From an uncultured Planctomycetaceae bacterium (GTDB taxonomy: Bacteria; Planctomycetota; Planctomycetia; Planctomycetales; Planctomycetaceae): a stretch of 20,000 bases of DNA. The stretch's first letter is position 1. Every line of letters starts with the position of its first letter. A program made the position numbers and the translations under genes. Under the pieces are notes generated by a model that had not been told where the DNA came from, made no database searches, and worked only from the letters and a program-made list of their open reading frames with translations. The stretch is taken from positions 368,393-388,392 of the forward strand of contig CAXBME010000005.1 in the NCBI GenBank assembly GCA_963976765.1, read 5' to 3'. Shown in pieces: positions 59 through 20,000 of the stretch.

Positions 59-413
<355 letters not shown>

Positions 414-417
414 TCTT

Positions 418-456
418 AATAAGCCACATGCGATTCGTCGCATGTGGCTTATTTTA
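418..456 (+). terminator. Intrinsic terminator of ssrA
   Basis: Perfect 16-bp stem AATAAGCCACATGCGA (418-433) / TCGCATGTGGCTTATT (438-453), TTCG loop, T-rich tail. Confidence 0.85.
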
Positions 457-477
457 TTGGACTTACAGCGATCAGAA

Positions 478-589
478 TGGGACAGGATCGTGTCCCACGA
501 TTGCCTCGGTCGGATAAAAATTGCATTTACGGTCGGATAACGCCTTGTCACAGTGCGGATAGTGAGCCTATGATGATTTATCCGACCGA
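478..589. repeat. Putative integrase binding sites next to attL
   Basis: Inverted repeat TGGGACA-N6-TGTCCCA (478-497); CGGTCGGATAA direct repeats at 507-517 and 530-540; partial CGGATA at 556-561; inverted 13-bp copy TTTATCCGACCGA at 577-589. Confidence 0.7.
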
Positions 590-616
590 TAAATCCATTC
601 ATTGAAAGGGCTGGCA

Positions 617-2404
617 ATGCCCATCCGTACCAAGAAGAAGTGGAAGCGAGACAGCCGAGGACATTTCCCAAGAGAGCTTGGGCAGAAGAGGACCGATTCC
701 GGGAAACTTGTGCCGCACAAGTTTCGGCTGAAATGCAATGAAGAGGCTGAGGCTGTCAGAAGGAACGCCCGACTGGAAGAGCTATGGCTCGCCATTGAAA
801 GCGAGGCCGAGAAGTTCGATTGGGAACCGCTCTGGAACGAACTGACGATCATGATCGGGCAGCAGATCGCAGAGGGCAGATACACAATCGAAGTCAGCAA
901 ATTCGAGAAAGACAGTCCCGACGCCTACGCTCGATACATCAACCGGCTCCAGACATCATTCCCGATGGTCACATTTGTTCCGGCACGTGGGTTGACCGAG
1001 GTTTTCGAAGAGGGGGCAGAAGATGCTCGCAGGAAGGCCAGCCGCTCTCTGAAGAAACGCATGGCAGAGTTTCGTGCTGAATTCGAGGATAAGCTCGTTC
1101 GGTTCGGGGGCCTCACTCGTGATGACGCCATGAACGGTTCAGAGATGCTTCACGAAGCACTGGACGAGTACGTGGAATACATCAAGACCACTGATATTCA
1201 ACCGGGCACCGACATCCTGACCGATTACGGCCAAATGAAAATCAACAACGTCGAGAGGCTCAAGGAACGCCATAACAATATTCCGCTCAAGTCGCTCTCG
1301 ACATTCGACAGCGTTCAGGCTTTGCTGAACATCTGGAGAAATCGGCCACTGGTAAAGAACTCCGATCCTCCTCGTCCTGTTACCATTAAAACTGCACGAC
1401 ACCACATTGCCGAGTTGATGCGGTTTCTTCGATGGTTGAATCGAACATCACACTTCGATTGGCGGAAGCCCCGTGACTTTGATGAACTCGACACTCGTGT
1501 CAAAGAAACACCGCAGGAGAAGAAGAGGCGCAATGGGCACACGCAAGTGGCCACATACACGATTGAGGAACTCAAGCTGCTGAATGAATACGCCACTCCA
1601 CTCGAACGGTTACTGCTGTTGCTGGGTCTCAATTGCGGTTTCGGGGCAGCCGAACAAGGTCGAGTAACCCTTTCAGACATCTTCCTGAACCAGCATCACC
1701 CAAATATCGAGTTGTTACAGCAACACGAATTGATGCACGAATTCGAGTGTCGCCCGACCGATAGCTTCCTGATGACATCTCGCCCCAAGACAGGAGTGTG
1801 GGGGGAATGGCTACTTTGGCCGCAGACAGTTGAGGCCATCAAATGGGGTCGTCAGCGTCGTGAGCGCATTGGCGGTGCGAACCAAGATGCCCTCTTGCTT
1901 GTAACCAGTCGAGGTACTCCGTTTTTGAAATCAACGTCAGCCGGAAACAGAAGCCAGAACTTCTCCAGACGATGGGCGGATTTGAACGGACGAGTCAAAA
2001 AAGAACACAACAGCTTTCCCACGCTGAGTTTTGGCAAGCTGAGAAAAACTGCCGGTACGATGATCCGCCACATGGCTGGTGGAGAGATTGCCGGGATTTT
2101 CCTGTGCCACGGGACGCCAGATCGAGGCAATGACCTTCTTGATGTTTACACTGATCGCCCATTCCCGAAACTGTTTACTGCATTACGTGACCTTCAGGAA
2201 AAACTAGCTCCCGTCTTTGATGCAGCACCGAATGATCTTTTTGCACAGCCGACTCAGCAGTACACGGGATTGTCCAAGATCAAACGCATTTACAAATTGA
2301 AAGACGACGGGATGCCGGTCCGTGACATCGCAATGGAAGTTGGAATCTCCAAGAGTGCTGTCCATCGGCATTTGAAGGCACGAGCCGAGAAGGCGAAGGT
2401 TTAG
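617..2404 (+). CDS. Atypical tyrosine recombinase/integrase with C-terminal helix-turn-helix
   Basis: Position next to ssrA; box I-like LLLGLNCGFG, RPKT lysine, box II-like FGKLRKT, FLCH and downstream VY tyrosine; C-terminal GMPVRDIAMEVGISKSAVHRHL HTH. ATG 617 (after GAAAGGG) preferred over TTG 602. Confidence 0.8.
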   Translation: MPIRTKKKWKRDSRGHFPRELGQKRTDSGKLVPHKFRLKCNEEAEAVRRNARLEELWLAIESEAEKFDWEPLWNELTIMIGQQIAEGRYTIEVSKFEKDSPDAYARYINRLQTSFPMVTFVPARGLTEVFEEGAEDARRKASRSLKKRMAEFRAEFEDKLVRFGGLTRDDAMNGSEMLHEALDEYVEYIKTTDIQPGTDILTDYGQMKINNVERLKERHNNIPLKSLSTFDSVQALLNIWRNRPLVKNSDPPRPVTIKTARHHIAELMRFLRWLNRTSHFDWRKPRDFDELDTRVKETPQEKKRRNGHTQVATYTIEELKLLNEYATPLERLLLLLGLNCGFGAAEQGRVTLSDIFLNQHHPNIELLQQHELMHEFECRPTDSFLMTSRPKTGVWGEWLLWPQTVEAIKWGRQRRERIGGANQDALLLVTSRGTPFLKSTSAGNRSQNFSRRWADLNGRVKKEHNSFPTLSFGKLRKTAGTMIRHMAGGEIAGIFLCHGTPDRGNDLLDVYTDRPFPKLFTALRDLQEKLAPVFDAAPNDLFAQPTQQYTGLSKIKRIYKLKDDGMPVRDIAMEVGISKSAVHRHLKARAEKAKV

Positions 2405-2461
2405 AAAGCTCTGGTGATGACACCCGCATGGCCTCCACCTTGAAACTCGGTGGAGGCCCAG

Positions 2462-2935
2462 ATGAACCAGATAACCAACTCTCTCTTCCGTTTTGGCGTT
2501 TTCGCTATCGGCTTCGCTGTCGCAGTAATCGCCTTTCTCGCCGTCGTTGGAATTGGCGGCCTTGTGTTGCCAGTGCTGCTGGGTTCTCTTGTCGGCGTGA
2601 CGCTGCTCGTGCTCGTCTGTTGGGGAGGCAGCCACCTACTCGGCCATCTCTTTCTCGGCCACGACCCTGCGTACCGGGAATGGTGCCGTAAGAGCGACCC
2701 TTGGTTTGACACCCTGCCTCCGCCATTCCGAGCACCGGATAGTCATCACGCTCCATACCAGTGTCTCCGATGTCATGGCGGCATGTGGTCCATCAATTGT
2801 GTCTGTCCATCTTGTGGCTTTGGCAGAAATGAAATGGTGTGCCCGTGTGGAGTCGAAGTGGTGCAGCCTCACGAGAACGCTTTCGAAACTACCGGAGTTG
2901 TTTGCTGGAATTGCCACCGCATCCTGAATCGGTAG
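2462..2935 (+). CDS. Hypothetical membrane protein with Cys-rich (zinc-ribbon-like) C-terminus
   Basis: GGAGG at 2452-2456 before ATG 2462; long hydrophobic stretch (about two TM helices); CLRC, CPSC, CPCG and CWNC motifs. Confidence 0.7.
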   Translation: MNQITNSLFRFGVFAIGFAVAVIAFLAVVGIGGLVLPVLLGSLVGVTLLVLVCWGGSHLLGHLFLGHDPAYREWCRKSDPWFDTLPPPFRAPDSHHAPYQCLRCHGGMWSINCVCPSCGFGRNEMVCPCGVEVVQPHENAFETTGVVCWNCHRILNR

Positions 2936-3194
2936 ACAGCGCCTCCTGAGACTATCGCCGGATATTTTGAGGCCGCTGCCCTTCTCGACATTTGCAGGAT
3001 GCTCCTGACTGTCCAACGAATACCGCCATTCGAACTTTTGTAACCACAATTCCGCAGACGAATCTTCATTCGGTCACGCACACATAAAGACATAGGGGGC
3101 TTGGTCGTTCTACAGGCCATCCCCGCCAGCCGCTTTTCAACATTTCTGACGATCAATTCGCCAAAACAATCTTTGCAACAGGAGTCGGACTGGC

Positions 3195-3229
3195 GAGAGC
3201 CCGCTCGACATTCCTGTCGAGCGGGTCTC
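3195..3229. terminator. Hairpin between convergent genes, probable terminator
   Basis: CCCGCTCGACA (3200-3210) / TGTCGAGCGGG (3215-3225), just downstream of the recombinase stop; no strong T tract. Confidence 0.5.
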
Positions 3230-3247
3230 CTGATTTCGGGGCGGGTG

Positions 3248-3982
3248 TTACAGGTCAACTTCCTTCATGGCAGACTGGTACTTGTCTTCAAGCTGACCAT
3301 CGAGAGCGACGTGCTGATAGACGGCAAGTGTCTCCCGCCGAGCGTGACCGGTGATGAGTTGCAGTTCAGCATCGGCCATCCCGGAATGCCGGGTCAGCCA
3401 TGTGATGGCTTGATGCCGGAAAGTATGAGGCGTTGCCTGTACGCCAGCTTCTTCTGCGTACCGCTTGACGATCTGCTGGATTCTGCGAGTCGAGAACCGG
3501 GAAGCTCTTCGTGTCTGGAAGAGCCAGCGATTGTGTGGGTGATTGGCCATGTGAGTCCGCAGTGCCGTGCCAAACGACTTTCCGAATAGCACGTAGCGGT
3601 CCTTCGAGCCTTTGCCCTGTTCGATCCTGATCTTGTGGTTGTCCAGATCAACGTCTTCGATTTTCATAGCACAGAGTTCTGAGACTCGGACACCGGTGAA
3701 GAACATCAGTCGAAGCATCAGGCTGTGCTGGACATCATCGGCCTGATCCACGATCCGATAAAAGCGCCGGAACTCGTCGCCGGTCAGAACTCGGGGCAGT
3801 CGCCGCCCCTTCTTCTTCGGGCTGAGGTCGCATTCCTGCCGGACCCGCTTGGAGATGTACCGCCAGTCGTCATAGTCGAGTCCAGCCTTGCGGATGATCC
3901 GACTGATCTGCGAGACGATCTTGGACTTGTCTGATTTCGCTTTTCCGTTTTGTGATGCGCCACTGGCCTTGTTTGAGGGCAT
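3248..3982 (-). CDS. XerC/D-like tyrosine recombinase (resolvase type, short N-terminus)
   Basis: Complete catalytic set: TGVRVSEL (R), GKGSKDR (K), TPHTFRH (HxxR), ITGH (H), AVY (Y). ATG 3982 has an AGGAG RBS; the ORF track start is 4057. Confidence 0.93.
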   Translation of the reverse strand: MPSNKASGASQNGKAKSDKSKIVSQISRIIRKAGLDYDDWRYISKRVRQECDLSPKKKGRRLPRVLTGDEFRRFYRIVDQADDVQHSLMLRLMFFTGVRVSELCAMKIEDVDLDNHKIRIEQGKGSKDRYVLFGKSFGTALRTHMANHPHNRWLFQTRRASRFSTRRIQQIVKRYAEEAGVQATPHTFRHQAITWLTRHSGMADAELQLITGHARRETLAVYQHVALDGQLEDKYQSAMKEVDL

Positions 3983-4080
3983 TCTTGGTGCTCCTGACGG
4001 GCTGAATCGTTCGTTGAATTTCGTGAACTGACTGTTCTGCGAAATTGCGGGTGCCATGTTGGACGCTCATGTCATGAAGA

Positions 4081-4112
4081 GCCCCGGAGCATCAACCTTG
4101 ATGCTCCGGGGC
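4081..4112 (-). terminator. Strong GC-rich hairpin after the 83-aa gene
   Basis: Perfect inverted repeat GCCCCGGAGCATCAA (4081-4095) / TTGATGCTCCGGGGC (4098-4112); only a short TCTT tail on the minus strand. Confidence 0.6.
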
Positions 4113-4124
4113 AGCCAACGACCA

Positions 4125-4376
4125 TCACTCAGGCTCAAAGGAATAATACAGGCGTGGGTCATGTTGAAACTTGACGCTCCCCCTGATTCCGCCTGTCTTT
4201 CGCTGGACGACACAGAACGGGGCCATGAACCCGAGGACTGTGAACTCTTGCTGGAGTTCTGAAGTCGTCCACACGTTTCCGACACCGTGCTTTTCTTCCA
4301 GCAGTCCCTTCGGGCTGGGATTCCGATTGATCTCTCGTTGTTCATTGCGGCGGATGGTTTCGATTGCGTCGTTCAT
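4125..4376 (-). CDS. Hypothetical protein (83 aa)
   Basis: GGAG RBS, protein-like composition, co-oriented with the cluster, preceded by the boundary motif. Confidence 0.75.
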   Translation of the reverse strand: MNDAIETIRRNEQREINRNPSPKGLLEEKHGVGNVWTTSELQQEFTVLGFMAPFCVVQRKTGGIRGSVKFQHDPRLYYSFEPE

Positions 4377-4430
4377 GCGTTACTCCGGTCAAAGGTGAAG
4401 TGGACTCAACGTCTCGATCACGGGTGTCAT

Positions 4431-4859
4431 TCATGAGGCCAGTTGAGACCGCTTTCGCTGTCGTTTTTCTTTCTGCCGGGCGTGATGCTCACGCACCTGT
4501 TGCCGCCACTCTGAGTTGCCGCCGTAGCGTGCCATCGGAACCAAATCGAAATACCTGAGCGGGCACGAGAAGCAATATGGACCGCAGGATTCTGACATGT
4601 CTTTGAATCCCCATTGCCCGGCGTGACATCGAATCAGGTCACAGGTGATCCAGCGTTGTTCAGGTTCAACTTCAACACCGTCCTTCTCAAACGTGCATTG
4701 CCACACTCCCCACAGCACACCGCTGAATCGTCCGCCACGAAAGCAGTGAGCAAGACAAACTCTTTTGACGGTCATGTCTTCGCCCTCACGCTCCCAAGCC
4801 TTGGTACGGTCTTCAATCAGGTTCCTTCGTGTCGCCGCTTGTGGATAAGTCCAGCCCAT
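4431..4859 (-). CDS. DUF6927-like protein of mobile elements
   Basis: N-terminal MGWT and WGFKDMSESCGPY...CP...WR motifs resemble DUF6927 (recalled, not searched); GGAG RBS. Confidence 0.7.
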   Translation of the reverse strand: MGWTYPQAATRRNLIEDRTKAWEREGEDMTVKRVCLAHCFRGGRFSGVLWGVWQCTFEKDGVEVEPEQRWITCDLIRCHAGQWGFKDMSESCGPYCFSCPLRYFDLVPMARYGGNSEWRQQVREHHARQKEKRQRKRSQLAS

Positions 4860-4870
4860 GTTGGTACTCC

Positions 4871-4905
4871 AAAAAGAAAGGCCAGTGAGTTCGTGCTCAC
4901 TGGCC
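4871..4905 (-). terminator. Terminator/attenuator-like hairpin in the leader of the DUF6927-like gene
   Basis: Perfect 10-bp stem GGCCAGTGAG/CTCACTGGCC (4880-4905), followed on the minus strand by TTTCTTTTT and then directly GGAG and ATG. Confidence 0.7.
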
Positions 4906-4931
4906 GTGCGGGTGTTCGATTTAAGGGGCCT

Positions 4932-5081
4932 CTAGCGAACCGCTTCGGTCTCGATCCGTTGCAGTGCCTCGTCAGACGGCTCGTCAGATGGATCGAATGG
5001 TAAATCGTCAAAGAGGTCGAACTCGTCGGCGACTTGATCGAGAACGTCGTAGTCGTCTTCGGTGAAGTGGAAGTCGTTCAT
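4932..5081 (-). CDS. Very acidic 49-aa protein
   Basis: ATG 5081 with GGAG RBS inside the 117-aa track ORF; 18 of 49 residues are D/E, with no K and 2 R. Confidence 0.65.
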   Translation of the reverse strand: MNDFHFTEDDYDVLDQVADEFDLFDDLPFDPSDEPSDEALQRIETEAVR

Positions 5082-5177
5082 TTCTGTCTCCAGTAATCGA
5101 GTGAGTGATTGACTGAAGACGTGGCGGGTGTCCGGTAAAATGGCCGCTGGCCACATAAATAGATCACGGAGGATCGA

Positions 5178-5735
5178 ATGTCTGAGTACCGTAGTGACCA
5201 TCTGACAGCCGCCACGTTTCGTGGCTATCAGCCCACTGAAGACTTCACTGACCTCATCCATGAGGCAGAGGAAGACCGTATCCATGCGGCGTTGACGAGC
5301 GGCAATCTACGAGCCGTGTTCAATGGCGCATCGGCAGCATCACAGGCAGATGATCCGTCGTTGTTTCTGGCCTTGCTGCAACGAGCCTTCCAGCAGGCGT
5401 GTGACGTTGAACAATGGGACGTTGTTGATGAGGCCGAGATAGACATCGCCACGGCGCTGGAAATGGTCCAGTTCGAGTGCCTTGAATCGTTGGCTTTGTG
5501 CGGTGAAGAGGCTGTTGCCTTGCTGGCATCAGTGCTGCAAGGAACCAACGATACTTTGATGTTTTCCGTGTTGAATGGGATCAAGGCCAGTGCCGATTCC
5601 GTGTTTGTTCCCATCGTCCACGGCTTCAAGCAGGAGCTTGAACATCTCGCCGTCCACGCTGACTCAGTGTCGCATTTGAATGATGCCGCCAACGAAGCAC
5701 TGGCAGCATGTTCTTCTGAGCTACAGCAGTTGTGA
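5178..5735 (+). CDS. Hypothetical acidic, Ala/Leu-rich helical protein (185 aa)
   Basis: GGAGG RBS before ATG; fills the gap between minus-strand genes; no recognised motif. Confidence 0.7.
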   Translation: MSEYRSDHLTAATFRGYQPTEDFTDLIHEAEEDRIHAALTSGNLRAVFNGASAASQADDPSLFLALLQRAFQQACDVEQWDVVDEAEIDIATALEMVQFECLESLALCGEEAVALLASVLQGTNDTLMFSVLNGIKASADSVFVPIVHGFKQELEHLAVHADSVSHLNDAANEALAACSSELQQL

Positions 5736-5796
5736 GGTCGCCTTGTGAGGTAGTCCAGAACTAGCGTCGGAAGGGCTTGTCCTGAAGGCGTGGGTG

Positions 5797-6708
5797 TCAG
5801 GCTTCAGCCTCAGCTTCGAGACGTTTCCTGACCCGGAAGTAGCTGGCTCGACTCTTCCCGGTGGCCTTGCACCAATGTTGCTGCTGGTCTGCTGTTGATT
5901 CTGGATGCCGCTTGATTGCATCCCGCAGTGCCTTGAGGTCTGCCGACTTGTTGTCGAGTCGTTTCGTGGCAATCTGCTTCCTGCCAAGTGACGACAACTG
6001 GCTCTTCAGTAACGGGCGGAAATCGATGCCTACGTCTCTGGCATAGCGGAATTTGCGAAGGCTGCTTCCTAGAAGCCGCAGGCTTAGCTGCCGGTCTTCA
6101 GACTCCTGTTCGATGTAATCAATCACGGTCTCGCAGTCCTCGACACTCAATTGGTCGAAGCCATTACGGGACAGATGCCGCATCATTTCGATGACCTCTC
6201 CGTTCGTGGCGGAAAGCTCGAACTGATCGCATCTCGTCAAGACAGCATCGAAGGCGTTATTGCTCTTTGGGATGACGTTGCAGGCAAAAACACAGCGAGA
6301 CGTGAACTCGAAACTGCTTGGCAGATCGGCAAGTTGGCTGCTCCCGTAGGTGACGATTCTTGGATTGCCCCACAAAGCCGATCTGAGCAATCCAAGATGC
6401 GCCATGGATGACGACGAGAACATCGAGTCCACGTCATCAAAGAAAATCACGGCGTCATCTCTGTGGGTCCACAACGTCGCAAAGAGCGCTAATGGAGTGA
6501 TGTGGCTGTTAATAAGCACTGGCTCGATGCCGCATTCTTCCAGCGTAGAGAGGATTACCCTGCTTTTGCCCAAACCTCCCTGTGCGCCAAAAACGAAGAG
6601 CCCCGCCGTCATCTTCCGTGCCAGAAGGCGGACGTGATGGGCCAGCAATTGCTGTTTCTTTTCCAATGCCAACAATGGTTCTGTGCCGTGCGAGTCGTCG
6701 AATGACAT
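5797..6708 (-). CDS. P-loop (AAA+-like) ATPase with possible C-terminal HTH
   Basis: Walker A-like GAQGGLGKS, Walker B VIFFDD, ACN sensor-like and LTR Arg-finger-like segments; C-terminal TGKSRASYFR. ATG 6708 has a GGAG RBS. Confidence 0.8.
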   Translation of the reverse strand: MSFDDSHGTEPLLALEKKQQLLAHHVRLLARKMTAGLFVFGAQGGLGKSRVILSTLEECGIEPVLINSHITPLALFATLWTHRDDAVIFFDDVDSMFSSSSMAHLGLLRSALWGNPRIVTYGSSQLADLPSSFEFTSRCVFACNVIPKSNNAFDAVLTRCDQFELSATNGEVIEMMRHLSRNGFDQLSVEDCETVIDYIEQESEDRQLSLRLLGSSLRKFRYARDVGIDFRPLLKSQLSSLGRKQIATKRLDNKSADLKALRDAIKRHPESTADQQQHWCKATGKSRASYFRVRKRLEAEAEA

Positions 6709-6755
6709 CTGGATTCTCCAGTAGAACAATTTGGGTGATGGCTTACTTGCGGGTG

Positions 6756-7160
6756 TCATTCCAGTCCGAGTTCTTCCCTGCCGACGTACTGGCCATATTC
6801 GTCAATCCCCAGAACCATCAGGATGCTGCTCTGGAGCGACGTTGCAGCGTCCCAGATGTCTTCTGCCGAATGTTGGTCGTTGTCCTTGAAGTCCGTATCG
6901 CCGAGTCTTCTGAGAAGCACACAGATCGAATGAGGCGTCACCTCGCATCGTCCCGTGTTCTCGAACACATCTGCCGGATCGCAGATGGCTTCCAGATGCG
7001 AATCAATCCCCCGATTCACGCATTGGGCAATTGCCGCCCATTCAATCGGGCACCGAATCAACATCGGGAATGGATCACTTCCCGTGGCTTCAATGGCTTT
7101 GCGAACTGTCGAGTACGGAAGCTCGATCAGGTCAGAGTTGGTGATCGTAGCTGTCGTCAT
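6756..7160 (-). CDS. Hypothetical acidic protein (134 aa)
   Basis: ATG 7160 (MTTATIT) after GGCGGA; co-oriented with the cluster; flanked by boundary motifs. Confidence 0.7.
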   Translation of the reverse strand: MTTATITNSDLIELPYSTVRKAIEATGSDPFPMLIRCPIEWAAIAQCVNRGIDSHLEAICDPADVFENTGRCEVTPHSICVLLRRLGDTDFKDNDQHSAEDIWDAATSLQSSILMVLGIDEYGQYVGREELGLE

Positions 7161-7333
7161 TGTGTGGTTCCGCCAGAAAGAAGGGTGGTTACTGACGGAA
7201 GCACGGGTGTCACTGGATAGAGGCACTCCAGAACCACAATGCCGCCGTGACGGGCATCACCAGTGGTCCTGTTCTTTTGGTGTAAGGACCACCGAGAAGC
7301 GACGTGTCACGGCGGCATCCGGGTGTCATGCTG

Positions 7334-7633
7334 CTACTCGTTGTCGAAGTACACGCAGTTGTATCCACCTCGATCAACATGAAATGCGACTGTTCCATGC
7401 TGGCGAACCATGCCAAATGCCAACTCGACAAGCTCATCGTGCGACAACTCAGCAAGCCGTAGTTTCTCTGCTTCGAAGGCTGCATTCGCCGCCTCGAATG
7501 CTTGTTGATAGACGACTGAGAATCGATCCGAGGCGATGGCCTTTGTGAGTGCCTCGTCTGGCCACTCTTCGAGCATGCTGTGGATTGCATCCCAAAGGTC
7601 GTCGGGAATCGTGAATGGCTCTGGCATGTGCAT
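7334..7633 (-). CDS. Hypothetical acidic protein (about 99 aa)
   Basis: Protein-like composition, directly downstream of ardC; start may be 7633 or 7627. Confidence 0.65.
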   Translation of the reverse strand: MHMPEPFTIPDDLWDAIHSMLEEWPDEALTKAIASDRFSVVYQQAFEAANAAFEAEKLRLAELSHDELVELAFGMVRQHGTVAFHVDRGGYNCVYFDNE

Positions 7634-7687
7634 CTCAATCTGTGCATGACGGACTCGGCTTACTTAGTCGAGTCCGAGAAAAGTCTG

Positions 7688-8590
7688 TCAGGAGGCCACC
7701 ATTGCGGGTGTCTGCGCTTCAGCAGTGGAACCAGAGTCATCCACACAGTTGAGAAGGAACGAGACTGTTTTGGCCGACTGTGATGCCGCTTGGAAGATCA
7801 CAGAATGGTTCTGACGAATGGCTTCAATCCAGCTTTTCAAATAGGCCGCTGAATTGTCATTCGTCGCCTGTGTGGCCAGTCCGAAATGGGCCATCAATGT
7901 GCAGGCAGAAATCTCAGCGACCAATTCACCAAAGCCGTAACTGTGTCCCGGCACTGTTCGGTCAAATCCTGTTCGTGATTCCGCAAAATGAGAGAGTTCG
8001 TGAAAAGCGGTTTCGTAATAGGCTTCGGGAGATTCGAAACGATGTTTCGCTGGCAGGGTGACTTCATCCGTGGCCGGGCAGTACGACGCTTGCTGACCTG
8101 TCCTGATTGTGCAGCCAACCGAATCAATGAGCCGTTCCGCAGCCTCGTGTCGTTCGAAGACCGTGCTGGACTCGTCAGGATCATCCACATGCAGATGCTT
8201 CAGCGTCGTCTGCTGTCCATTGAAGACAACGAAGCTCTTCATGATCGCAAACGTGCTTTCGGACTCGTCCCCGTTTGCGTCAATCGTTGTCTTCTTCACC
8301 GGCTTGAACAGAACTATTCGTGTCCCACGCTGACCTTTGAGGACGCTTCCCTGCATGGCTTTGATCTGACGGAACGTCCCCCACCATTTGCTCTCGTACC
8401 CGTACTTCCATGCGGAGCACATCAGGAGCAGTTGGTTGATGCCGGTGTAGACGTTGCCAGTCGAAAGAGAAGTGGCGAGACCGCTGTTTCTGCTGATAGT
8501 CCAGCTTCGACGCCAAGGCAACAGGTCGCCTTCCATCGCCTCAAGGATGCGGGCAACAACGTCCGCCTGAATTTCTGATCGAGTCTGCAT
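7688..8590 (-). CDS. ardC: ArdC-family ssDNA-binding antirestriction protein (DUF1738 plus zincin-like domain)
   Basis: LPWRRSW, YTGINQLLL, WGTFRQ, FHELSH (HExxH), ELVAEIS and AYLKSW motifs; GGAGG RBS before ATG 8590. Confidence 0.93.
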   Translation of the reverse strand: MQTRSEIQADVVARILEAMEGDLLPWRRSWTISRNSGLATSLSTGNVYTGINQLLLMCSAWKYGYESKWWGTFRQIKAMQGSVLKGQRGTRIVLFKPVKKTTIDANGDESESTFAIMKSFVVFNGQQTTLKHLHVDDPDESSTVFERHEAAERLIDSVGCTIRTGQQASYCPATDEVTLPAKHRFESPEAYYETAFHELSHFAESRTGFDRTVPGHSYGFGELVAEISACTLMAHFGLATQATNDNSAAYLKSWIEAIRQNHSVIFQAASQSAKTVSFLLNCVDDSGSTAEAQTPAMVAS

Positions 8591-8975
8591 GAATGCCTCC
8601 GTCGTTGGTGTGAGTGACGAAGGCATTGCGGGTGTCAGAGATTGGCCGAGGGGCTTACACGACCGAATCCCTGAGAATTGAGACGGCGGTTTCAGAACTG
8701 GTTTCAATCTCGGTTGTGGCTGGCATTTCTGACACCGACTCCGGGCCAGACAGGCCAGCACAACTCTCATTCCGGCAGCGGGTTACGATGCAACGTTGAT
8801 GGCCAGTCTCAAGTTTCAAAGAGACCAGCGTTTTCGACGCACCGGCAATGACGGGCCTTGGCTCGATGAGATTTATCTCAGTCTTTATCTCGTCGCCACG
8901 ATTCCCGGCGAAGAGCAGCTTTGGTAAGGTTTGACAAGAACAAACGATGTTCCGACAGGTCGATGAGATCGTCAC

Positions 8976-9182
8976 ATGGAAAAGCTCAATGATTATCTCC
9001 GGGTCTCGGAGGCGGCAGCCTATCTGGGGGTCGCCCCGAACACGCTGCGTAACTGGGAGCGGGCTGGAAAGATCGTCTCCCACCGACACCCGGTGAACGA
9101 CTACCGGCTTTTCAAGCAGGAAGACCTCGATGCGCTGTTGCTCAAGGCTGACAAACCTCGAAAGGCCCCGAAGAAGGGCTGA
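8976..9182 (+). CDS. Small MerR/excisionase-like HTH DNA-binding protein
   Basis: LRVSEAAAYLGVAPNTLRNWERAGKI...YRLF winged-HTH pattern. Confidence 0.88.
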   Translation: MEKLNDYLRVSEAAAYLGVAPNTLRNWERAGKIVSHRHPVNDYRLFKQEDLDALLLKADKPRKAPKKG

Positions 9183-9203
9183 GCACCGCTTGAAGGTCAA
9201 ATC

Positions 9204-12074
9204 ATGACGACACCATACCACGCCAAATACTTTGCTCACGAACTGACCCGGCAGGCCGAGCCGGGGGGCGTGGATCGCTTGTCGATGGCCTTGTTTGACG
9301 CCTGTGTCGATCTGAACCCGCACCAGATCGAAGCGGCAATGTTCGCTCTGCGAAGCCCACTCTCGAAGGGCGTCGTGCTGGCCGACGAGGTTGGCCTCGG
9401 CAAGACCATCGAAGCCGGTCTCGTTCTTTGCCAACACTGGGCCGAGCGAAAACGAAAGCTGCTCATCATCTGCCCGGCGAGCCTACGCAAACAGTGGAGT
9501 CTGGAGCTTCAGGAGAAGTTCAATCTCCCGACCGAGATTCTCGATGCCAAGACGTACCGGCAAGCTGTTCGTGAAGGACGTGGAACTCCCTTCGACGGCA
9601 ACAAGGTGGTCATTACATCGTTCCATTTCGCCAGCCGCTATCGGGGCGAAATCCGTGCTGTCCCCTATGACCTCGTGGTCATTGATGAGGCTCACAAACT
9701 TCGTAATGCCTACCGACCCAGCAACAAGATTGGCCAGAACATCAAATGGGCCATCGAAGAGCGAAAGAAGTGCCTGCTGACCGCCACTCCGCTCCAGAAC
9801 TCTCTGCTGGAGCTATATGGTCTGTCGTCAATTCTGGACGATCTGATCTTCGGCGATGTGAATTCCTTCCGAACTCAATACACAAATGCGGGTGCCGATC
9901 TCGGGGCTTTGAGGAATCGCCTTCAGTCGTTCTGTAAACGCACGCTGAGACGACAAGTCACCGAGTACATCCAATATACAAAACGCATCCCGCTGACTGT
10001 CCGGTTCCGGCCAAACGATGATGAGCAGAAACTCTATGAGGCGGTTTCCGACTTCCTGAATCGGGAAGAGACTTACTCGGTCCCGCATCGCCAGCGTCAC
10101 CTCACGGCCCTGATTCTTCGCAAACTTCTTGCCTCTTCGTCTCACGCCATCGCCAACACGCTCGACACAATGAAGTCCCGGCTGGAGGACATGCGTGATG
10201 CGCCGAAGCAGGAAGAGGACGAAGATGAATTCATGGAAGAACTGATCGAGAATGAGGAACTCGAAAACGACTACCTCGATGAAATCCTCGAAGGAACCAC
10301 GGATCAGGAAGAAGAACCAGAACCACAGGTCGATCTCCCGAAGCTGAACGATGAGATCAGAGAGCTTTCGCAGTATGCACAGTGGGCACGCAGCATTGGG
10401 ATCGATACGAAAAGCCGTTCGCTGTTGCAGGCGCTCGACCTTGGCTTTGCCCAGATGGAAAAGATGGGGGCCAACCGCAAGGCCCTGATCTTCACTGAGT
10501 CCCGACGCACGCAGGACTACCTGAAGAACTTTCTGGAATCCAACGGATTCGGAGGACAGGTGGTTCTTTTCAACGGAACCAATTCAGACCCGGACTCACG
10601 CAGCATCATCGACAAGTGGATTGACCAGAACACCTCGACGGGCCGAATTACTGGATCACGGGCTATCGACAGCCGCACGGCTCTCATCGAACACTTCCAG
10701 AATCATGCCACGGTGATGATCGCTACGGAAGCAGCGGCGGAAGGTGTCAACATGCAGTTCTGCTCGCTGGTCATTAACTATGACCTGCCGTGGAATCCGC
10801 AGCGCATCGAACAGCGAATCGGTCGCTGCCATCGTTACGGCCAGAAGCACGATGTTGTGGTTATCAACTTTCTGAACGAGCGGAACGAAGCCGACAGACG
10901 GGTTCACGAACTGCTGTCAGAGAAGTTCAATCTTTTCAGTGGCGTCTTCGGCGCTTCGGATGAGGTTCTCGGCCAGATTGAATCCGGTGTCGATTTTGAG
11001 AAACGCATCCTTGCCATCTACCAGCAGTGCCGCACGGTGGACGAAATCGATGTCGCCTTCAAGCGCCTTCAATCTGAAATGGACGAGGCCATTCAGTCCA
11101 AGATGGACGAGACCCGTCAGATGCTCATGGAGCATTTTGATGAAGATGTTCACTCTCGCCTGAAGATGCGTCTTGATGATGCCAAGGCAAATCTGGACCG
11201 CATTGGCCGTCAGTTCTGGACCCTCACAAAGATTGTTCTCAATGGCCATGCCAACTTCTGTGACGACACGCTGACATTCGTGCTCGACAGATCGCCGGTC
11301 AGCACGTGTCGGCCCGGTGAATATCATTTAATCTCAAAACAGCAAAAGAACGTGACAGGCGATTTTCTTTACCGCCTGTCTCATCCGCTGGGTGAGTGGA
11401 GCATCGAACAGGGAAAGCAGGCCAGCACACCTGTGGCGAAAGTCCGCTTCGACGTGACGAACTACCCGCTGAGAGTGGCGGTGGTCGAAGCCCTGAAAGG
11501 GAAGAGCGGCTGGCTCACGCTTCAGTACCTCACCATCGATTCCTTTGACCGGGAAGAGTACCTGCTCTTTTCGGCGATGGACTCCAGCGGCAGGTCGCTC
11601 GATCAGGAATCCTGTCAGAAGCTCTTCAACTGCTCCGGTCAAATTATGGAGACCACAGAGCCACCCCTTGAGATGACAGAGCGACTGAGGAAAGAAGCCG
11701 GACGCCATGCCGAAGCAACGATCACGCATTCGCTGGAAGGCAACAACGCTCTGTTCAATGAAGAACGGGAGCGACTCGAAAAGTGGGCCGAGGACATGGT
11801 GATTGCCGCCGAGAAAGACTTGGCGGACACTAAGGCTCAAATCAAGACAGTCCGGCGACAGTCACGTCTGGCAACCACATTGGATGAGCAGAACGAACTT
11901 CAGACGAAGTTGCGTGACTTGGAAAAGAAGCAACGCAAACAGCGTCAGCGGATTTTTGGGATCGAAGACGAAATCGCTGAAAAGCGTGATGATCTGATCG
12001 ACGGACTTCAGCGACGGATGACACAGAAAACTCACAGCACCCACCTTTTCACGATCCAGTGGGAAGTGGTTTGA
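9204..12074 (+). CDS. SNF2-family helicase associated with Type III-like RM
   Basis: LNPHQ, LADEVGLGKT, IDEAH, LTATP and YDLPWNPQRIEQRIGRCHRYGQ motifs; coiled-coil C-terminus. Confidence 0.95.
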   Translation: MTTPYHAKYFAHELTRQAEPGGVDRLSMALFDACVDLNPHQIEAAMFALRSPLSKGVVLADEVGLGKTIEAGLVLCQHWAERKRKLLIICPASLRKQWSLELQEKFNLPTEILDAKTYRQAVREGRGTPFDGNKVVITSFHFASRYRGEIRAVPYDLVVIDEAHKLRNAYRPSNKIGQNIKWAIEERKKCLLTATPLQNSLLELYGLSSILDDLIFGDVNSFRTQYTNAGADLGALRNRLQSFCKRTLRRQVTEYIQYTKRIPLTVRFRPNDDEQKLYEAVSDFLNREETYSVPHRQRHLTALILRKLLASSSHAIANTLDTMKSRLEDMRDAPKQEEDEDEFMEELIENEELENDYLDEILEGTTDQEEEPEPQVDLPKLNDEIRELSQYAQWARSIGIDTKSRSLLQALDLGFAQMEKMGANRKALIFTESRRTQDYLKNFLESNGFGGQVVLFNGTNSDPDSRSIIDKWIDQNTSTGRITGSRAIDSRTALIEHFQNHATVMIATEAAAEGVNMQFCSLVINYDLPWNPQRIEQRIGRCHRYGQKHDVVVINFLNERNEADRRVHELLSEKFNLFSGVFGASDEVLGQIESGVDFEKRILAIYQQCRTVDEIDVAFKRLQSEMDEAIQSKMDETRQMLMEHFDEDVHSRLKMRLDDAKANLDRIGRQFWTLTKIVLNGHANFCDDTLTFVLDRSPVSTCRPGEYHLISKQQKNVTGDFLYRLSHPLGEWSIEQGKQASTPVAKVRFDVTNYPLRVAVVEALKGKSGWLTLQYLTIDSFDREEYLLFSAMDSSGRSLDQESCQKLFNCSGQIMETTEPPLEMTERLRKEAGRHAEATITHSLEGNNALFNEERERLEKWAEDMVIAAEKDLADTKAQIKTVRRQSRLATTLDEQNELQTKLRDLEKKQRKQRQRIFGIEDEIAEKRDDLIDGLQRRMTQKTHSTHLFTIQWEVV

Positions 12075-12091
12075 GATAGCGAGGAAAAGAA

Positions 12092-15160
<3,069 letters not shown>

Positions 15161-15174
15161 AGGAATCAACGATT

Positions 15175-15642
15175 ATGAAATCTGAACAGTTCAAGAGCGA
15201 CGGGTCAAGATATTCGTCAATTATTGTCCCCTTTAATCGACGTTGGCGAACCCCGATTGAAAAGCACGAGATAAAGGCCGTCTTTCGTAAGAAGGGGCCA
15301 AGCGATGCCGATGGACTTCGGACGATATACGCATACGTCGGCTCTCCAGTAAGTGCAATCTGCGCAAAAATGGAAGTCGTCAAGACGATGCGTCTGTCGG
15401 TTGAGGATGCTCGCAATCACTGTGAGGCGGCGAAGCTGTCTGTGAGCAAATTAGAGGAGTATGCAGGAGGCCAGCCTTTATTTGTGTTTGAGATTGGAGA
15501 GATCACTCTGCCGAAGACGTGTCTTGATCGCCACGAGTTGCTCACACAGTTCGGGTTTCAACCGACGCCTAGCTTTGTGGCATTGTCGGTCGCAGGAGCA
15601 GACGCTCTCGATGCTGCGCTCGGAATACTGTCACAGGATTAG
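15175..15642 (+). CDS. ASCH/PUA-like domain protein
   Basis: AVFRK..., IYAYVGSPVSAI and C-terminal GFQPTPSFVAL resemble ASCH-family signatures; GAGGA RBS before ATG 15175. Confidence 0.6.
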   Translation: MKSEQFKSDGSRYSSIIVPFNRRWRTPIEKHEIKAVFRKKGPSDADGLRTIYAYVGSPVSAICAKMEVVKTMRLSVEDARNHCEAAKLSVSKLEEYAGGQPLFVFEIGEITLPKTCLDRHELLTQFGFQPTPSFVALSVAGADALDAALGILSQD

Positions 15643-15647
15643 GTTAA

Positions 15648-18600
15648 ATGGCAAAGAAACGAACAAAGAAGAACGAGAAGCCGCCACTGAGATTCGACGA
15701 GAAACTCGTCCTGAACCAGTGGATGCTGTCGCTATTTGAGGTGAGCGGTTTCGACAAGCTGGCCGAACATCTGAAGTCTCTCGAACTCGAAGGACTGGAC
15801 GAAAACAACGTCCACAAGTACCTGCACCAGATGAAACTGCTTTGGGAGTACGAGGAGTTTCCCGGTGACACGTTGCTTGGTTACGACCAGAACATTGTCA
15901 AGCACACGCTGGCCCTCAGCGAGAAACGAGCCGAGCCGCTGCGTTGGAAATACTTCCAGTACCTCTCTCTGCTCTTCACCGAGGTCTACCTCGACCGCTT
16001 CTTCCGTGACCCGGCCAAGTTGTTGGCCAACCTGAACCTGCACGTCGCCAAGTTCAATGAGGGAAAAACCACAAAGGAACAAATCCCCGACTACGAACCT
16101 GACGACCTGCGGAAGCTGGCGTTCTGGAATGCCACGGGCAGCGGCAAGACGTTGCTGATGCACGTCAACATCCTTCAGTACCAGCACTACCTGAAGCTAA
16201 ACGACAAAGATAAGGGCCTGAACCGGATTATCCTGCTCACTCCCAACGAGGGCCTTTCCAAGCAGCACCTCGAAGAGTTCCACGCTGCGGGGATCGACGC
16301 TGATCTGTTCTCAAAGGAATCCCGGTCGCTCTTCTCGGGCCGGTCGGTTGAGATCATCGAAGTCACCAAGCTCAAGGAAGAGATGGGCCAGAAGACCGTC
16401 GCCATTGACGCCTTCGAGGGGAACAACCTTGTACTGGTCGATGAAGGACATCGAGGTGCCAGTGCGAGCGTCGAAGGGGCATGGATGAGTGCCCGGAACC
16501 GACTCTGCGAAAATGGCTTCTCCTTCGAGTATTCCGCCACGTTCGGACAAGCAATGAAGGGGAAGAAGGGCCTCGAACCGATCTACGCCAAGAACATCCT
16601 GTTCGACTACTCGTACAAGTATTTCTACCGGGATGGCTTCGGGAAGGATTACCGCATTCTGAACCTCGCCGACGACTCCGATGAAGAACGCCGTCGCCTA
16701 TACCTGTCTGCGTGCCTCGTCGCCTTCTACCAGCAACAGAAGCTCTACGCTGACAACCCGAACACATTTCGGCCCTTTCTACTAAAGAAGCCCCTGTGGG
16801 TTTTCGTGGGTGGCAGCGTGAATGCCGTTCGGACCCAAAACAAACGCAAGGTGTCTGACGTTGTTGATATTCTGCTGACGCTTTCAGAGTTCGTAAAGAA
16901 CAAACGAGATTCGATCAGCCTGCTGGAACGACTACTGAGCGGCAAGCCGGGTGTGCTGGATCAACGTGGCAACGAAATTTTCGCTACGGCCTTTCCCCAC
17001 TTGGTCTCCACGAAGATGTCAGCCGAGGATGTGTACAACGACATCCTGAACGTGCTGTTCAATTCGACAACACAGGCGGCCCTGCACGTCGAGAACCTGA
17101 AAGGCACGGATGGAGAGATCGCCCTGCGTCTTGGCGAGAATGACTCTTTCGGTCTCATCAACGTCGGCGATGCCTCGAACCTCTGCAAGCTCTGTGAAGA
17201 ACACCCGGAACTGCTGGTTGTTACGGAGAAGGAGTTTGCTGGTTCGCTCTTCCGTGGACTGAATGATGATGACTCGACCGTCAATGTGCTGATCGGATCA
17301 AAGAAATTCACCGAGGGATGGAACAGTTGGCGTGTCAGTACGATGGGCCTCATGAACATCGGGCGCACAGAAGGTTCCGAGATCATCCAGTTGTTCGGTC
17401 GTGGTGTGCGTCTCAAGGGCCACGGCATGACTCTGAAACGTAGCAGTCAGCTTGAAGGCATCGACCGCCCAGACAGAATTCACTTGCTAGAGACGCTGAA
17501 CATCTTCGGCATCCGGGCCGACTACATGAGGCAGTTCAAAGAGTACCTCGAAGAAGAAGGTCTCCCCGGCAACGAGGAGAGGATCGAGTTCATCCTGCCG
17601 GTCGTCAAGAACCTCAATGGGAAGAAGCTCACTAGCGTCCGCATTGAAGAGGGGAAAGACTTCAAGCTACACGGACCCAAACCAAAACTCGAATCGCCAC
17701 CAGACCGACTTCTGCGGCATCCTGTAGCACTCAACTGGTATCCAAAGATTCAGGCCCAGCAGAGCAAAGGCGTGGCCAAGACCGAAGACTCGGCGGTGAA
17801 GCATGAAGGGAAGCTCGAAGAGCGACACCTCGCCTTCATGGACATCGACGCCATCTGGTTTGAACTTCAGCACTTCAAGAACGAACGGTCATGGTACAAC
17901 TTGAACCTCGACCGGGATTGTATCCTGCATTTGCTCTCACCACCCAACAACGAGTGGTACAAGCTCTTCATCCCGCCCGAGGAATTGGAGTTCACACAGT
18001 TCGACCGGGTACGCCGCTGGGAAGAGATCGCCGTCGCCCTGCTCAAGAAGTACGCCGACCGCTACTACAAGCACAAGAAGCAAGAGTGGGAGTCGGACTT
18101 CTACGAGTACCACGATCTTCGGGAAGACGATCCAAACTTTGTATCGGAGTACCGACTGCTAATCGACGAGTCACAGGACACCATTGTCGAGAAGCTTGGC
18201 GAACTGAAGGAGAAGATCGAAGATGGGTCACTGACCAACTGGTCCTTCGGGAACCTGCACGCCATCTCGTTCGGGCAGCATCTCTACCAGCCGCTTCTGC
18301 ACTTCAAGAGTGACTTCGTGGATGTCAGCCCGGTTTCACTCAACGAGGGTGAGAAAGAGTTCGTCACCGATCTGCGCTCGTTCTACGAAGACAACCCGTC
18401 GTTCTTCGAGGATCAAGAACTGTACCTGCTCCGCAACATGAGCCGAGGCCGAGGCATTGGTTTCTTCGAGGCTGGAAACTTCTACCCTGACTTCCTGCTC
18501 TGGCTACTGACAGACGACAAGCAATACGTCACGTTCGTCGATCCAAAGGGAATCCGAAACCTCGAAGGACCAGATGATCCCAAGATTCGGTTCTACCGCA

Positions 18601-18824
18601 CGATCAAGGAACTGGAGGGACGACTCGGCGACCCGAACGTCATCCTGAACTCGTTCATCATCTCGAACACGCCCTTCCAGCAAGTCCGATGGTGGACCGA
18701 GGACTTATCCAAGGATGAGTTCACCAAGGCGCACGTCCTTTTCCAGAAGGAAGACCGAGCTACCTACATCAAACGACTCCTGACAACAGTAGCGAGCGCA
18801 CAGCAAGTGGCCATCGAGGTGTAA
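15648..18824 (+). CDS. res: Type III RM restriction subunit (SF2 helicase plus PD-(D/E)xK nuclease)
   Basis: ATGSGKT, VDEGH, YSAT, QLFGRGVRL helicase motifs; C-terminal FYPDF...FVDPKG nuclease motif. Confidence 0.93.
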   Translation: MAKKRTKKNEKPPLRFDEKLVLNQWMLSLFEVSGFDKLAEHLKSLELEGLDENNVHKYLHQMKLLWEYEEFPGDTLLGYDQNIVKHTLALSEKRAEPLRWKYFQYLSLLFTEVYLDRFFRDPAKLLANLNLHVAKFNEGKTTKEQIPDYEPDDLRKLAFWNATGSGKTLLMHVNILQYQHYLKLNDKDKGLNRIILLTPNEGLSKQHLEEFHAAGIDADLFSKESRSLFSGRSVEIIEVTKLKEEMGQKTVAIDAFEGNNLVLVDEGHRGASASVEGAWMSARNRLCENGFSFEYSATFGQAMKGKKGLEPIYAKNILFDYSYKYFYRDGFGKDYRILNLADDSDEERRRLYLSACLVAFYQQQKLYADNPNTFRPFLLKKPLWVFVGGSVNAVRTQNKRKVSDVVDILLTLSEFVKNKRDSISLLERLLSGKPGVLDQRGNEIFATAFPHLVSTKMSAEDVYNDILNVLFNSTTQAALHVENLKGTDGEIALRLGENDSFGLINVGDASNLCKLCEEHPELLVVTEKEFAGSLFRGLNDDDSTVNVLIGSKKFTEGWNSWRVSTMGLMNIGRTEGSEIIQLFGRGVRLKGHGMTLKRSSQLEGIDRPDRIHLLETLNIFGIRADYMRQFKEYLEEEGLPGNEERIEFILPVVKNLNGKKLTSVRIEEGKDFKLHGPKPKLESPPDRLLRHPVALNWYPKIQAQQSKGVAKTEDSAVKHEGKLEERHLAFMDIDAIWFELQHFKNERSWYNLNLDRDCILHLLSPPNNEWYKLFIPPEELEFTQFDRVRRWEEIAVALLKKYADRYYKHKKQEWESDFYEYHDLREDDPNFVSEYRLLIDESQDTIVEKLGELKEKIEDGSLTNWSFGNLHAISFGQHLYQPLLHFKSDFVDVSPVSLNEGEKEFVTDLRSFYEDNPSFFEDQELYLLRNMSRGRGIGFFEAGNFYPDFLLWLLTDDKQYVTFVDPKGIRNLEGPDDPKIRFYRTIKELEGRLGDPNVILNSFIISNTPFQQVRWWTEDLSKDEFTKAHVLFQKEDRATYIKRLLTTVASAQQVAIEV

Positions 18825-18878
18825 AGAAACGTCCTGAATCGGTGACGGTTACGGTGACAACCATAATTGGATGCGGCC

Positions 18879-19226
18879 TTAATTCGGTAGCCCAGACACG
18901 CCGGAATGGTGGCGTATGCGGGGAACGAGTTCGCCGTCGTGCCACAGCAGTCCCGTCAGGCACCGTTTTATCTCAGCAATCCGTTCGAGCTTTGACTTGA
19001 GCGGATTTGAGTCCGGCAGATGGATTGGTGGTCTCCCTTGCCAGACCTCATGGCATCGGCGGCAAACCAGAATCACCCATTCAGGATTGTAGAACCCGAA
19101 CTTGTATGAAAGATGGTGACAATCGAGGCCGGGGGCTCTGCACAGAAAGCAAAGCCCCTTTTCTCGTCGCCAAACTGTCTCTCGGACGGTTTGCCATTCG
19201 GGGGTCAAGTAGGGATCAGTTTTCAT
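18879..19226 (-). CDS. Small HNH endonuclease-like protein
   Basis: W..VR..V..R...CFLC, HH and CRRCH zinc-binding HNH pattern. Confidence 0.8.
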   Translation of the reverse strand: MKTDPYLTPEWQTVRETVWRREKGLCFLCRAPGLDCHHLSYKFGFYNPEWVILVCRRCHEVWQGRPPIHLPDSNPLKSKLERIAEIKRCLTGLLWHDGELVPRIRHHSGVSGLPN

Positions 19227-19249
19227 GCAGCTATTTATGCCGCAGAAGA

Positions 19250-19546
19250 TCAGAACCCTTCCCTTTGCCAGTCAATATGTTGAGTCGGCTTTGGCTGTCC
19301 TCGAAAGCGCCTCAGCCACCGCATGATGTCATCAATGACTCTCGTGGTTTCTTCGGCACGAATCTCAACGCCACGGTGACAGTATGAGTCCGACTCATGG
19401 CCCTCGATCTCGTCCATCTTCTGGAGAAATTCAAGCTCGACACTGAATTCAAAGGCATCGTCGTAGTTGAGACACAAGCGATTGCCTGCTCTATCTGACA
19501 CCACGATCTCGTCGTCAAAGCCCACGACTCTTGCAAGATTACGCAT
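19250..19546 (-). CDS. Hypothetical protein (98 aa)
   Basis: ATG 19546 with GGAGG RBS, overlapping the upstream stop codon. Confidence 0.6.
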   Translation of the reverse strand: MRNLARVVGFDDEIVVSDRAGNRLCLNYDDAFEFSVELEFLQKMDEIEGHESDSYCHRGVEIRAEETTRVIDDIMRWLRRFRGQPKPTQHIDWQREGF

Positions 19547-19958: not shown

Positions 19959-20000
19959 TCAAAACGGACCCACTTCGGGGAGCTGATCGGCGTTGAAAAT

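Follow-up and report, generated by a model that had tools for sequence, protein, structure and literature searches.

What is the function of a ten-nucleotide motif that recurs, oriented with transcription, along the accessory gene cluster of a bacterial genomic island? This question is raised by a stretch of 20,000 nucleotides (hereafter the window; GenBank assembly GCA_963976765.1, contig CAXBME010000005.1, here C5, positions 368,393 to 388,392), which forms the end of its contig in the 8.6-Mb genome of an uncultured Planctomycetaceae bacterium. A transfer-messenger RNA (tmRNA) gene is followed there by an integrase-like gene and a membrane-protein gene reading inward, a minus-strand cluster headed by a gene for an ArdC-type anti-restriction protein, and a type III-like restriction-modification (RM) cargo. 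The original prediction, made from the letters alone, saw in the motif either a coordinated switch or a set of cassette-shuffling junctions. We favour, with moderate confidence, the reading that it is a dedicated, non-host promoter cassette for establishment genes, probably read in trans.

All twelve copies originally listed are present, at the positions and on the strands given for them. With at most one mismatch allowed, the window holds 12 matches vs 1.59 ± 1.20 in 200 shuffles (maximum 5); these comprise eleven of the listed copies and an unlisted intragenic one (TGACAGCCGC) at 5203, whereas the listed copy at 4908 has two mismatches, a level at which the window count is not significant (29 vs 21). 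All twelve listed copies lie in 2400-8700, with none in 1-2399 or 8701-20000 and therefore none at the RM operon, as had been noted. Orientation does track transcription rather than strand, divergent and convergent pairs included, and the flipped copy before the membrane-protein gene (family F17) is flipped in related elements too. The spacing from the end of the 10-mer to the start codon likewise agrees with the earlier description, being 34, 43, 48, 42, 40, 42 and 37 nucleotides (nt) for seven copies and 64 and 70 nt for two, and three stop codons (3248, 5797, 6756) fall within copies. The statement that the motif marks nearly every gene boundary has to be narrowed, as the copy at 7704 lies inside the last ardC codons and those at 3241, 5790 and 7319 have no gene behind them. 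What had been overlooked is an extended consensus, G-RYACCNR-C-W-A, together with a pyrimidine-purine (YR) step that follows 10/11 nt further on, the hairpins of the leaders and, at 8730, a degenerate copy in divergent orientation. In a related strain (run X3, one contig), a 20-base insertion at window position 6751 creates another GACACC immediately ahead of the motif.

Across the genome, matches occur at a density of 1.3 per 20 kb and only two 10-kb bins stand out: the window island (12) and a second ArdC island on contig C41 (14; loci L051 and L052), the next bin having 4. This second island carries the same motif, a Prim-Pol/D5 helicase, an extracytoplasmic function (ECF) sigma factor with a Ser/Thr kinase, two serine recombinases, and efflux and type I RM cargo. 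No copy of ACACCCGC stands 20-69 nt ahead of any of 3310 host genes. A position weight matrix trained on 69 sites from other genomes recovers 7/12 window copies at 12 bits or more (one scores 9.5 and four below 9, and there are four other window hits); run against the host genome, the check proposed at the outset, it gives no excess before host starts, with 0 hits 20-49 nt upstream vs about 0.9 expected per 10-nt bin. A host-wide signal or Chi-like site was rejected, ACACCCGC occurring 236 times genome-wide vs 196 expected, without positional bias. Similarly, 17 of the 18 exact 12-mers in a complete genome (G504) are located in the element. The gene for a 142-aa protein, which serves as marker of the family, was found in 143 metagenome stretches (80 of them used) and in 21 of 401 genomes of the class. 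Motif versions differ by element (GACACCCGC, GGCACCTGCTA, GGACACCGGCAA, GGCACCCCCTAG, GGATACCCTCCA, GATACTGACTA and others), and in the 32 elements with five or more scored sites the element's own majority 7-mer (one of seven) is present at 206/243 sites. Motif type follows element lineage loosely (area under the curve, AUC, 0.75 for the marker gene) and not the host, and single genomes contain elements of different types; gene trees covered the marker family F0 (full) and ArdC (quick). The motif marks a family of ArdC-led islands of the Planctomycetota and is private to these elements; in some of them it also precedes the integrase or the ECF sigma gene. No description was found in the main texts of openly accessible articles when searching for planctomycete ArdC or integrative elements, leading-region promoters, T7 islands, ECF sigma factors, promoters of virion polymerases or the literal motifs, the matches listed for the last being all on unrelated subjects.

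The anatomy of the copies suggests a promoter. In 35 elements, 204/280 copies lie no more than 120 nt from a conserved gene, and at 154 of these 204 sites the core ends 40-49 nt before the start codon, while the distance to the previous stop is spread. At 77 sites, dereplicated by gene family and motif type, a YR step stands at positions 10/11 after the core in 65 (next offset 34/77; background 0.22), and it is present in 16 of the 17 gene families. Bacterial transcription start sites prefer such a step. As originally stated, there is no -35-like box: conservation upstream does not exceed 0.16 bit from -30 to -3 (204 sites), and it is weak between the box and the predicted +1, up to a YRK at 10-12. 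A sigma70-like -10 box lies upstream of the ardC copy in only 2/32 elements, and boxes resembling TTGACA-17-TATAAT had no minus-strand match in window positions 400-9300.

A second line of evidence comes from a hairpin RNA of about 190 nt, which is found directly behind ardC in relatives (for example, L106:7183-7375 and, on the minus strand, L052:10252-10495). In an alignment of 11 partly related sequences, 24 of its 52 pairs showed changes in both partners, more than in any of 500 shuffles or any slid control. The RNA opens with GTCCTGATCGGGAC, bears the palindromic CTGGCCAG in its top loop and ends in a U tract; it was found with high score in 15/43 sources, the window not being among them. 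Rfam gave no match at gathering score (best E 3 at a lax threshold), only tmRNA and tRNA being found. Its rod shape recalls 6S RNA. The invariant first hairpin begins at position 11 after the core in 13/17 elements and within one base of it in 17/17, and with the 5' boundary of the RNA at this position the box would thus span about -18 to -8.

A third line is the folding of the leaders. The core itself is not structured in RNA, but bases 4-12 after it pair with the downstream leader (about 0.5 vs 0.2 in shuffles). When the 5' end is shifted to position 10-11, the predicted energy for opening the ribosome-binding site (RBS) falls from 7.70 to 5.15 kcal/mol and is flat afterwards; this drop of 2.55 compares with 0.92 when those ten bases are shuffled (p=0.026) and with 0.50 in 300 host genes (p=0.0013). 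Within the window the predicted lock is strong in four of seven leaders (those of ardC, the 134-aa gene, the 49-aa gene and the gene at 2462) and absent from those of the ATPase and 83-aa genes, while in the leader of the 142-aa gene a terminator-like hairpin straddles the predicted start instead. The features concerned, in window coordinates, are the following.

59..416, plus strand: tmRNA gene (ssrA), into which the island is inserted; the left attachment site is its 3' end, with a 20-nt repeat of this end at C48:32898-32917
545..574, plus: candidate sigma70-type promoter for the integrase, TTGTCA-18-TATGAT (consensus match), of host type and not the motif
620..2404, plus: planctomycete integrase-like protein with C-terminal helix-turn-helix (HTH), family F40, so named from position and few database names; no Pfam integrase match
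2418..2427, plus: motif copy, inward arm; predicted +1 at 2437; leader hairpin predicted to lock the RBS, opening energy 20.2 to 4.7 kcal/mol
2462..2935, plus: membrane protein with Cys-rich tail (F17)
3241..3250, minus: motif copy containing the recombinase stop codon; YR present, predicted +1 at 3231; hairpin, no open reading frame (ORF) behind
3248..3982, minus: XerC/D-like tyrosine recombinase with 87 residues from the R of box I to the H of box II
4047..4056, minus: motif copy 64 nt ahead of the recombinase start; YR not at 10/11
4125..4376, minus: 83-aa conserved protein (F2); look-alike clusters mostly viral
4420..4429, minus: motif copy; predicted +1 at 4410
4431..4859, minus: conserved protein of 142 aa (F0) that marks the element family; curved beta-sheet
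4880..4905, minus: hairpin resembling an intrinsic terminator, with U tract, directly behind the motif; predicted +1 at 4898 within its 5' arm
4908..4917, minus: motif copy with two mismatches
4932..5081, minus: 49-aa very acidic protein, by composition possibly DNA-mimic-like
5124..5133, minus: motif copy; predicted +1 at 5114; predicted RBS lock 15.3 to 6.5; one-gene deletion junction relative to the C41 element
5178..5735, plus: 185-aa gene opposing the cluster direction, without motif in front
5790..5799, minus: motif copy containing the ATPase stop; no YR, no gene behind; probable remnant
5797..6708, minus: AAA+-like ATPase with C-terminal HTH-like tail (F11)
6749..6758, minus: motif copy containing the previous stop; predicted +1 at 6739
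6756..7160, minus: 134-aa protein
7203..7212, minus: motif copy; predicted +1 at 7193; predicted RBS lock 12.1 to 4.3
7319..7328, minus: motif copy; no YR, no gene start behind; probable remnant
7334..7633, minus: 97-99-aa protein
7704..7713, minus: motif copy within the last ardC codons, where relatives begin the structured RNA
7688..8590, minus: ArdC-like anti-restriction protein (Pfam ArdcN and zincin domain MPTase-PolyVal), first cluster gene
8628..8637, minus: first motif copy; predicted +1 at 8618; leader hairpin predicted to lock the ardC RBS, 17.2 to 5.2 kcal/mol
8730..8739, plus: degenerate divergent copy (TGACACCGAC)
8976..18824, plus: motif-free cargo, comprising HTH_17, SNF2 helicase, N6/N4 methyltransferase, 154-aa protein and ResIII-type nuclease

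A fold search with the 142-aa protein was uninformative (best Z 6.8, no clear fold match). In relatives, a 71-aa acidic family occupies a place similar to that of the 49-aa acidic protein.

Taken together, we infer that the box G-RYACCNR-C-W-A would be recognised at about -18 to -8, without a -35 box, and that transcription would start 11 nt after the 7-base core. Such a promoter would stand before nearly every establishment gene, ardC first, before the structured RNA and, as an inward arm, after the integrase. In roughly one leader in three, the ten bases from core to start may make up the 5' arm of a hairpin involving the ribosome site, or of a terminator, so that RNA reading through from upstream would be poorly translated or stopped, and RNA begun at the motif would be open. 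Leader lock and private promoter together would therefore keep the cluster silent in the resident host, to be switched on as a block when a non-host factor appears, be it an alternative sigma factor or a polymerase, probably supplied in trans. Of the two functions first proposed, the coordinated switch would accordingly be recast as a promoter-like element, suggested by fixed spacing, initiator step, RNA 5' boundary and hairpin lock, and not as an operator, stoperator or boxA. Since each gene is flanked by 11-13 identical bases, gains and losses of genes also break at the copies, which are homogenised within a lineage.

Several observations weigh against this reading. The opening energy drops by at least 2 kcal/mol in only 26/77 leaders (host 45/300) and a terminator is seen in 3/77; some copies (30 sites) are intragenic, and 4/12 window copies lack the YR step. 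The p-values overstate significance because the sites come from related elements, and descent from a single duplicated leader could account for some of the positional signal. Moreover, searches of genomes, element proteins and viral contigs yielded no factor reading the motif. The ECF sigma factor, which with its kinase adjoins motif copies in several elements, was rejected as reader, its recognition residues being constant across motif types and its clade not being found in genomes G129, G035 and G048, whose elements have intact motifs. The HTH candidates fared no better: the helices of the ATPase and of an AlpA-like protein are unchanged across motif types, which speaks against the earlier proposal of the ATPase, and the HTH protein at 8976, suggested likewise, belongs to a family that travels with the RM cargo and does not track motif type (AUC 0.48). 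Among families with 15 or more loci only F19 and F21 passed an AUC of 0.9 for motif type, and both are absent from most elements.

Other candidates were considered as well. No dedicated sigma factor was recognised among the window proteins (Pfam, PHROGs, NCBIfam), of which several small ones have no assignment. A T7-type polymerase was rejected, PF00940 being absent from the window's own genome (G000) and from five others with elements (G504, G518, G129, G035 and G048), although an infecting phage may still supply one; such polymerases (L289-L300) occur in 12/401 Planctomycetota genomes, in families other than the host's, with no motif cluster in the 2-4 kb around their genes. Prim-Pol was discarded, being on C41 only, with no close relative in 3/5 genomes tested and 2 hits outside elements. 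For a helper phage, three pattern scans of viral contigs (the first with 80 of at least 118 stretches listed) and two protein scans (7 and 22 loci) gave no motif cluster before genes among the matches listed, and phage relatives of two cluster genes are without the motif. A small RNA complementary to the motif was dismissed, given that reverse copies retain the same 3' extension or sit at divergent positions.

A bolder extension of the promoter reading, which we regard as possible but rather unlikely, is that the islands are transcriptional parasites, holding an anti-defence regulon and the structured RNA under a promoter that neither they nor the host read and that a helper switches on, or else that the reader is a small island protein acting as a new initiation factor. 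The helper might be, for example, a virion-packaged polymerase or sigma factor of a planctomycete phage, and motif types would then be helper-specificity groups.

Arrangements in relatives add some variety. At L315, L316, L319 and L051:7735 the motif lies 19-32 nt before the ECF sigma start, whereas relatives use a sigma70-type TAGAAT promoter there and start leaderless. Empty units, in which tandem copies spaced by 32-95 nt have no gene between them, are found at L110:5519-5585, L135:9917-9949 and L093:1951-2133. After the integrase of L344 (G504:C1:3649004-3649316) and L364 (G563:C45:89162-89266), copies pointing towards one another at a distance of about 93 nt enclose a perfect AAAGGAGGTG site; G504 has a two-codon ORF in this place and also four forward copies within 210 nt. 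From such facing copies sense and antisense RNAs could therefore pair. In many elements (L032:13925-16342, minus strand, and 26 other loci), a RuvB homologue, an AlpA-like HTH protein and a tyrosine recombinase of a second type take the place of the ATPase-HTH gene, and the movement of this block is independent of motif type.

Which other explanations could account for the same signals? The least improbable of them is RNA processing, by which a nuclease would bind the motif in a polycistronic RNA and cut at the YR step, freeing single-gene messages whose ribosome sites are open. Such cutting would account equally well for the fixed spacing, the YR step, the RNA boundary and the release of the hairpin. 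However, the cargo upstream of the first (ardC) copy lies on the opposite strand and a sigma70-like box is scarce there (the 2/32 given above), so that no RNA would be available to cut; furthermore, a nuclease would face a core that is unstructured, and the cluster holds no nuclease candidate.

Recombination at the motif, that is, an integron- or shufflon-like cassette exchange in which the 7-mer serves as an overlap matching within the element, has in our view only a small chance of being correct. Comparing elements of one motif group, 12/16 clean indel junctions fall no more than 15 nt from a copy, 7 of them no more than 3 nt, where a uniform null expects 5.7%; this null is lenient, since the clean loss of any gene leaves its breaks between genes, and some junctions represent a single event counted twice. 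The window, for instance, lost one gene that is present in the C41 element, the break lying in the 5124 copy. The uniformity of the motif within elements, the occurrence of 21/139 family pairs in both orders and the tyrosine recombinase of the cluster, which in many elements has a RuvB-like partner, suit such a site too. On the other side, 118/139 pairs keep one order, ardC is first in 25/25, and the same architecture is found in elements with a tyrosine recombinase, in others with a serine resolvase and in others with neither of these families. The motif flanks are not self-complementary beyond two bases, copies also stand before the RNA, before the integrase and inside genes, and a crossover would not need a fixed distance to the start codon. 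Integron integrases have a specific insertion between box I and box II; the window recombinase lacks it, with 87 aa from R to H and 87.5 bits in the integron-integrase model (cut-off 265). Four DNA sequencing runs (as contigs) showed no joints, a result uninformative on rare excisions; no RNA run containing the region was listed. Of the shuffling junctions first proposed there remain the breaks at the motif, which look like a by-product of repeated sequence rather than an integron-like system because order is mostly kept and the recombinase family varies (tyrosine, serine, neither).

We hold it just as doubtful that the motif is an operator or stoperator, on each asymmetric copy of which a repressor would block the host polymerase until transfer into a naive cell (zygotic induction). 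Asymmetric, transcription-oriented, intergenic and lineage-specific copies recall the stoperators of phage L5 (PMC9283540), and the arrangement would suit anti-restriction genes, cf. the clade II repressor system of pLS20 (PMC8708921). Yet no host-type promoter is available to be repressed, no HTH tracks the motif, and the YR step and the RNA boundary would be left unexplained. Least probable is a single-strand signal, either a primase-polymerase start or a single-stranded DNA (ssDNA) promoter formed when a reverse copy pairs with the ardC copy: the C41 element does encode the Prim-Pol/D5 helicase and a type-matched reverse copy, changing with motif type, lies within 300 nt of ardC in 10/24 elements and pairs with the ardC copy in several DNA folds, but 14/24 elements are without it, both strands carry copies following transcription, Prim-Pol is distributed as described above, and no relaxase or transfer genes were found among the proteins scanned.

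As for the island itself, contigs C5 and C48 end in the same repeat, a 5-base duplication is common to the two flanks, and 3.2 kb into C48 lies the 20-base copy of the tmRNA 3' end; the island therefore probably measures about 23 kb plus an insertion sequence. The end of this insertion sequence, with its 5-base duplication, splits an HTH replication-initiator-like gene (window 19950-20000; C48:32898-36091), and the same C48 segment holds the right attachment site and a second, truncated integrase. Among the scanned proteins of the C5 and C48 parts there is no recognised sigma factor, polymerase, relaxase or capsid protein.

The known routes by which mobile elements express anti-restriction genes briefly, and just when they are needed, are repressor-based and ssDNA-promoter systems. 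The promoter reading points to another one, in which Planctomycetota islands of a widespread family, apparently not described so far, would combine a host-orthogonal promoter with a lock on translation that is built into it. The motif could then serve as bait, any gene behind it being a candidate anti-defence factor, and its natural variants may provide an orthogonal promoter set once the reader is found.

How does the element compare with known systems? Promoters of ECF sigma factors have -35 and -10 boxes about 16 nt apart, whereas the island has one box with YRK at 10-12 and nothing conserved at -35. An integron with IntI and attC would show an attC-type imperfect palindrome, which the two complementary flank bases do not form, and a scrambled order, which is not found. 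L5 stoperators (PMC9283540) are alike in being asymmetric, numerous, intergenic and transcription-oriented, but the island motif has a fixed start-codon distance and an initiator step, and neither a cognate repressor nor a co-varying HTH was found. Frpo and the pLS20 EGeRS1/2 (PMC11541004; PMC8708921) share with it a common upstream element before ardC and other anti-defence genes; they are, however, repeats of 400-600 bp with repressed strong promoters or long ssDNA hairpins with -35/-10, while the island element has 11 bases, occurs on both strands and is accompanied by no conjugation genes that we could see. An ssDNA promoter of Frpo type would also have canonical boxes, absent here, and the reverse partner of the island motif is limited to the ardC copy in the 10/24 elements. 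The promoters of single-subunit phage polymerases, such as Syn5 ATTGGGCACCCGTAA (PMC11617373; PMC11880802), resemble the motif as one contiguous, lineage-specific box in many near-identical copies. Eight of 11 letters match the Syn5 promoter, an agreement without significance once the number of promoters and offsets is taken into account. Unlike Syn5 and T7-like promoters, the island motif lacks the AT-rich upstream part and conservation from about -17 through +1, its predicted +1 lies 7 nt further downstream than the Syn5 register implies, and PF00940 is absent from the six genomes with elements given above. T7-promoter islands are found in enterobacteria; our literature search did not find them.

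Two systems of phage T4 come into view for the combination of promoter and hairpin. The long early RNA of T4 gene e forms an inhibitory hairpin, inside which late promoters start (PMC3014915). As with gene e and I-TevI (PMC3014915), a short box (TATAAATA), read in T4 by the phage sigma factor gp55, is joined to an inhibitory hairpin, and a start in the 5' arm frees the ribosome site, as is predicted here for the 26/77 leaders; the island box differs in being GC-rich and of other sequence and in serving anti-defence genes, and no gp55-like gene was found on the element. In the T4 PeSLs, a repeated promoter-terminator unit is a point of exchange (PMC4122927), and both there and here a repeated regulatory unit stands before small accessory genes, promoter (here a putative one) and hairpin occur together, and indels are bounded by the repeat. 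The PeSLs are described as early promoter-terminator composites of lytic phages, whereas the present element is an 11-base, non-sigma70 box without -35 on a chromosomal island, its hairpin lying behind the box and overlapping the predicted +1. By analogy, and while being a member of neither group, the motif would work like the late promoters and the PeSLs of T4.

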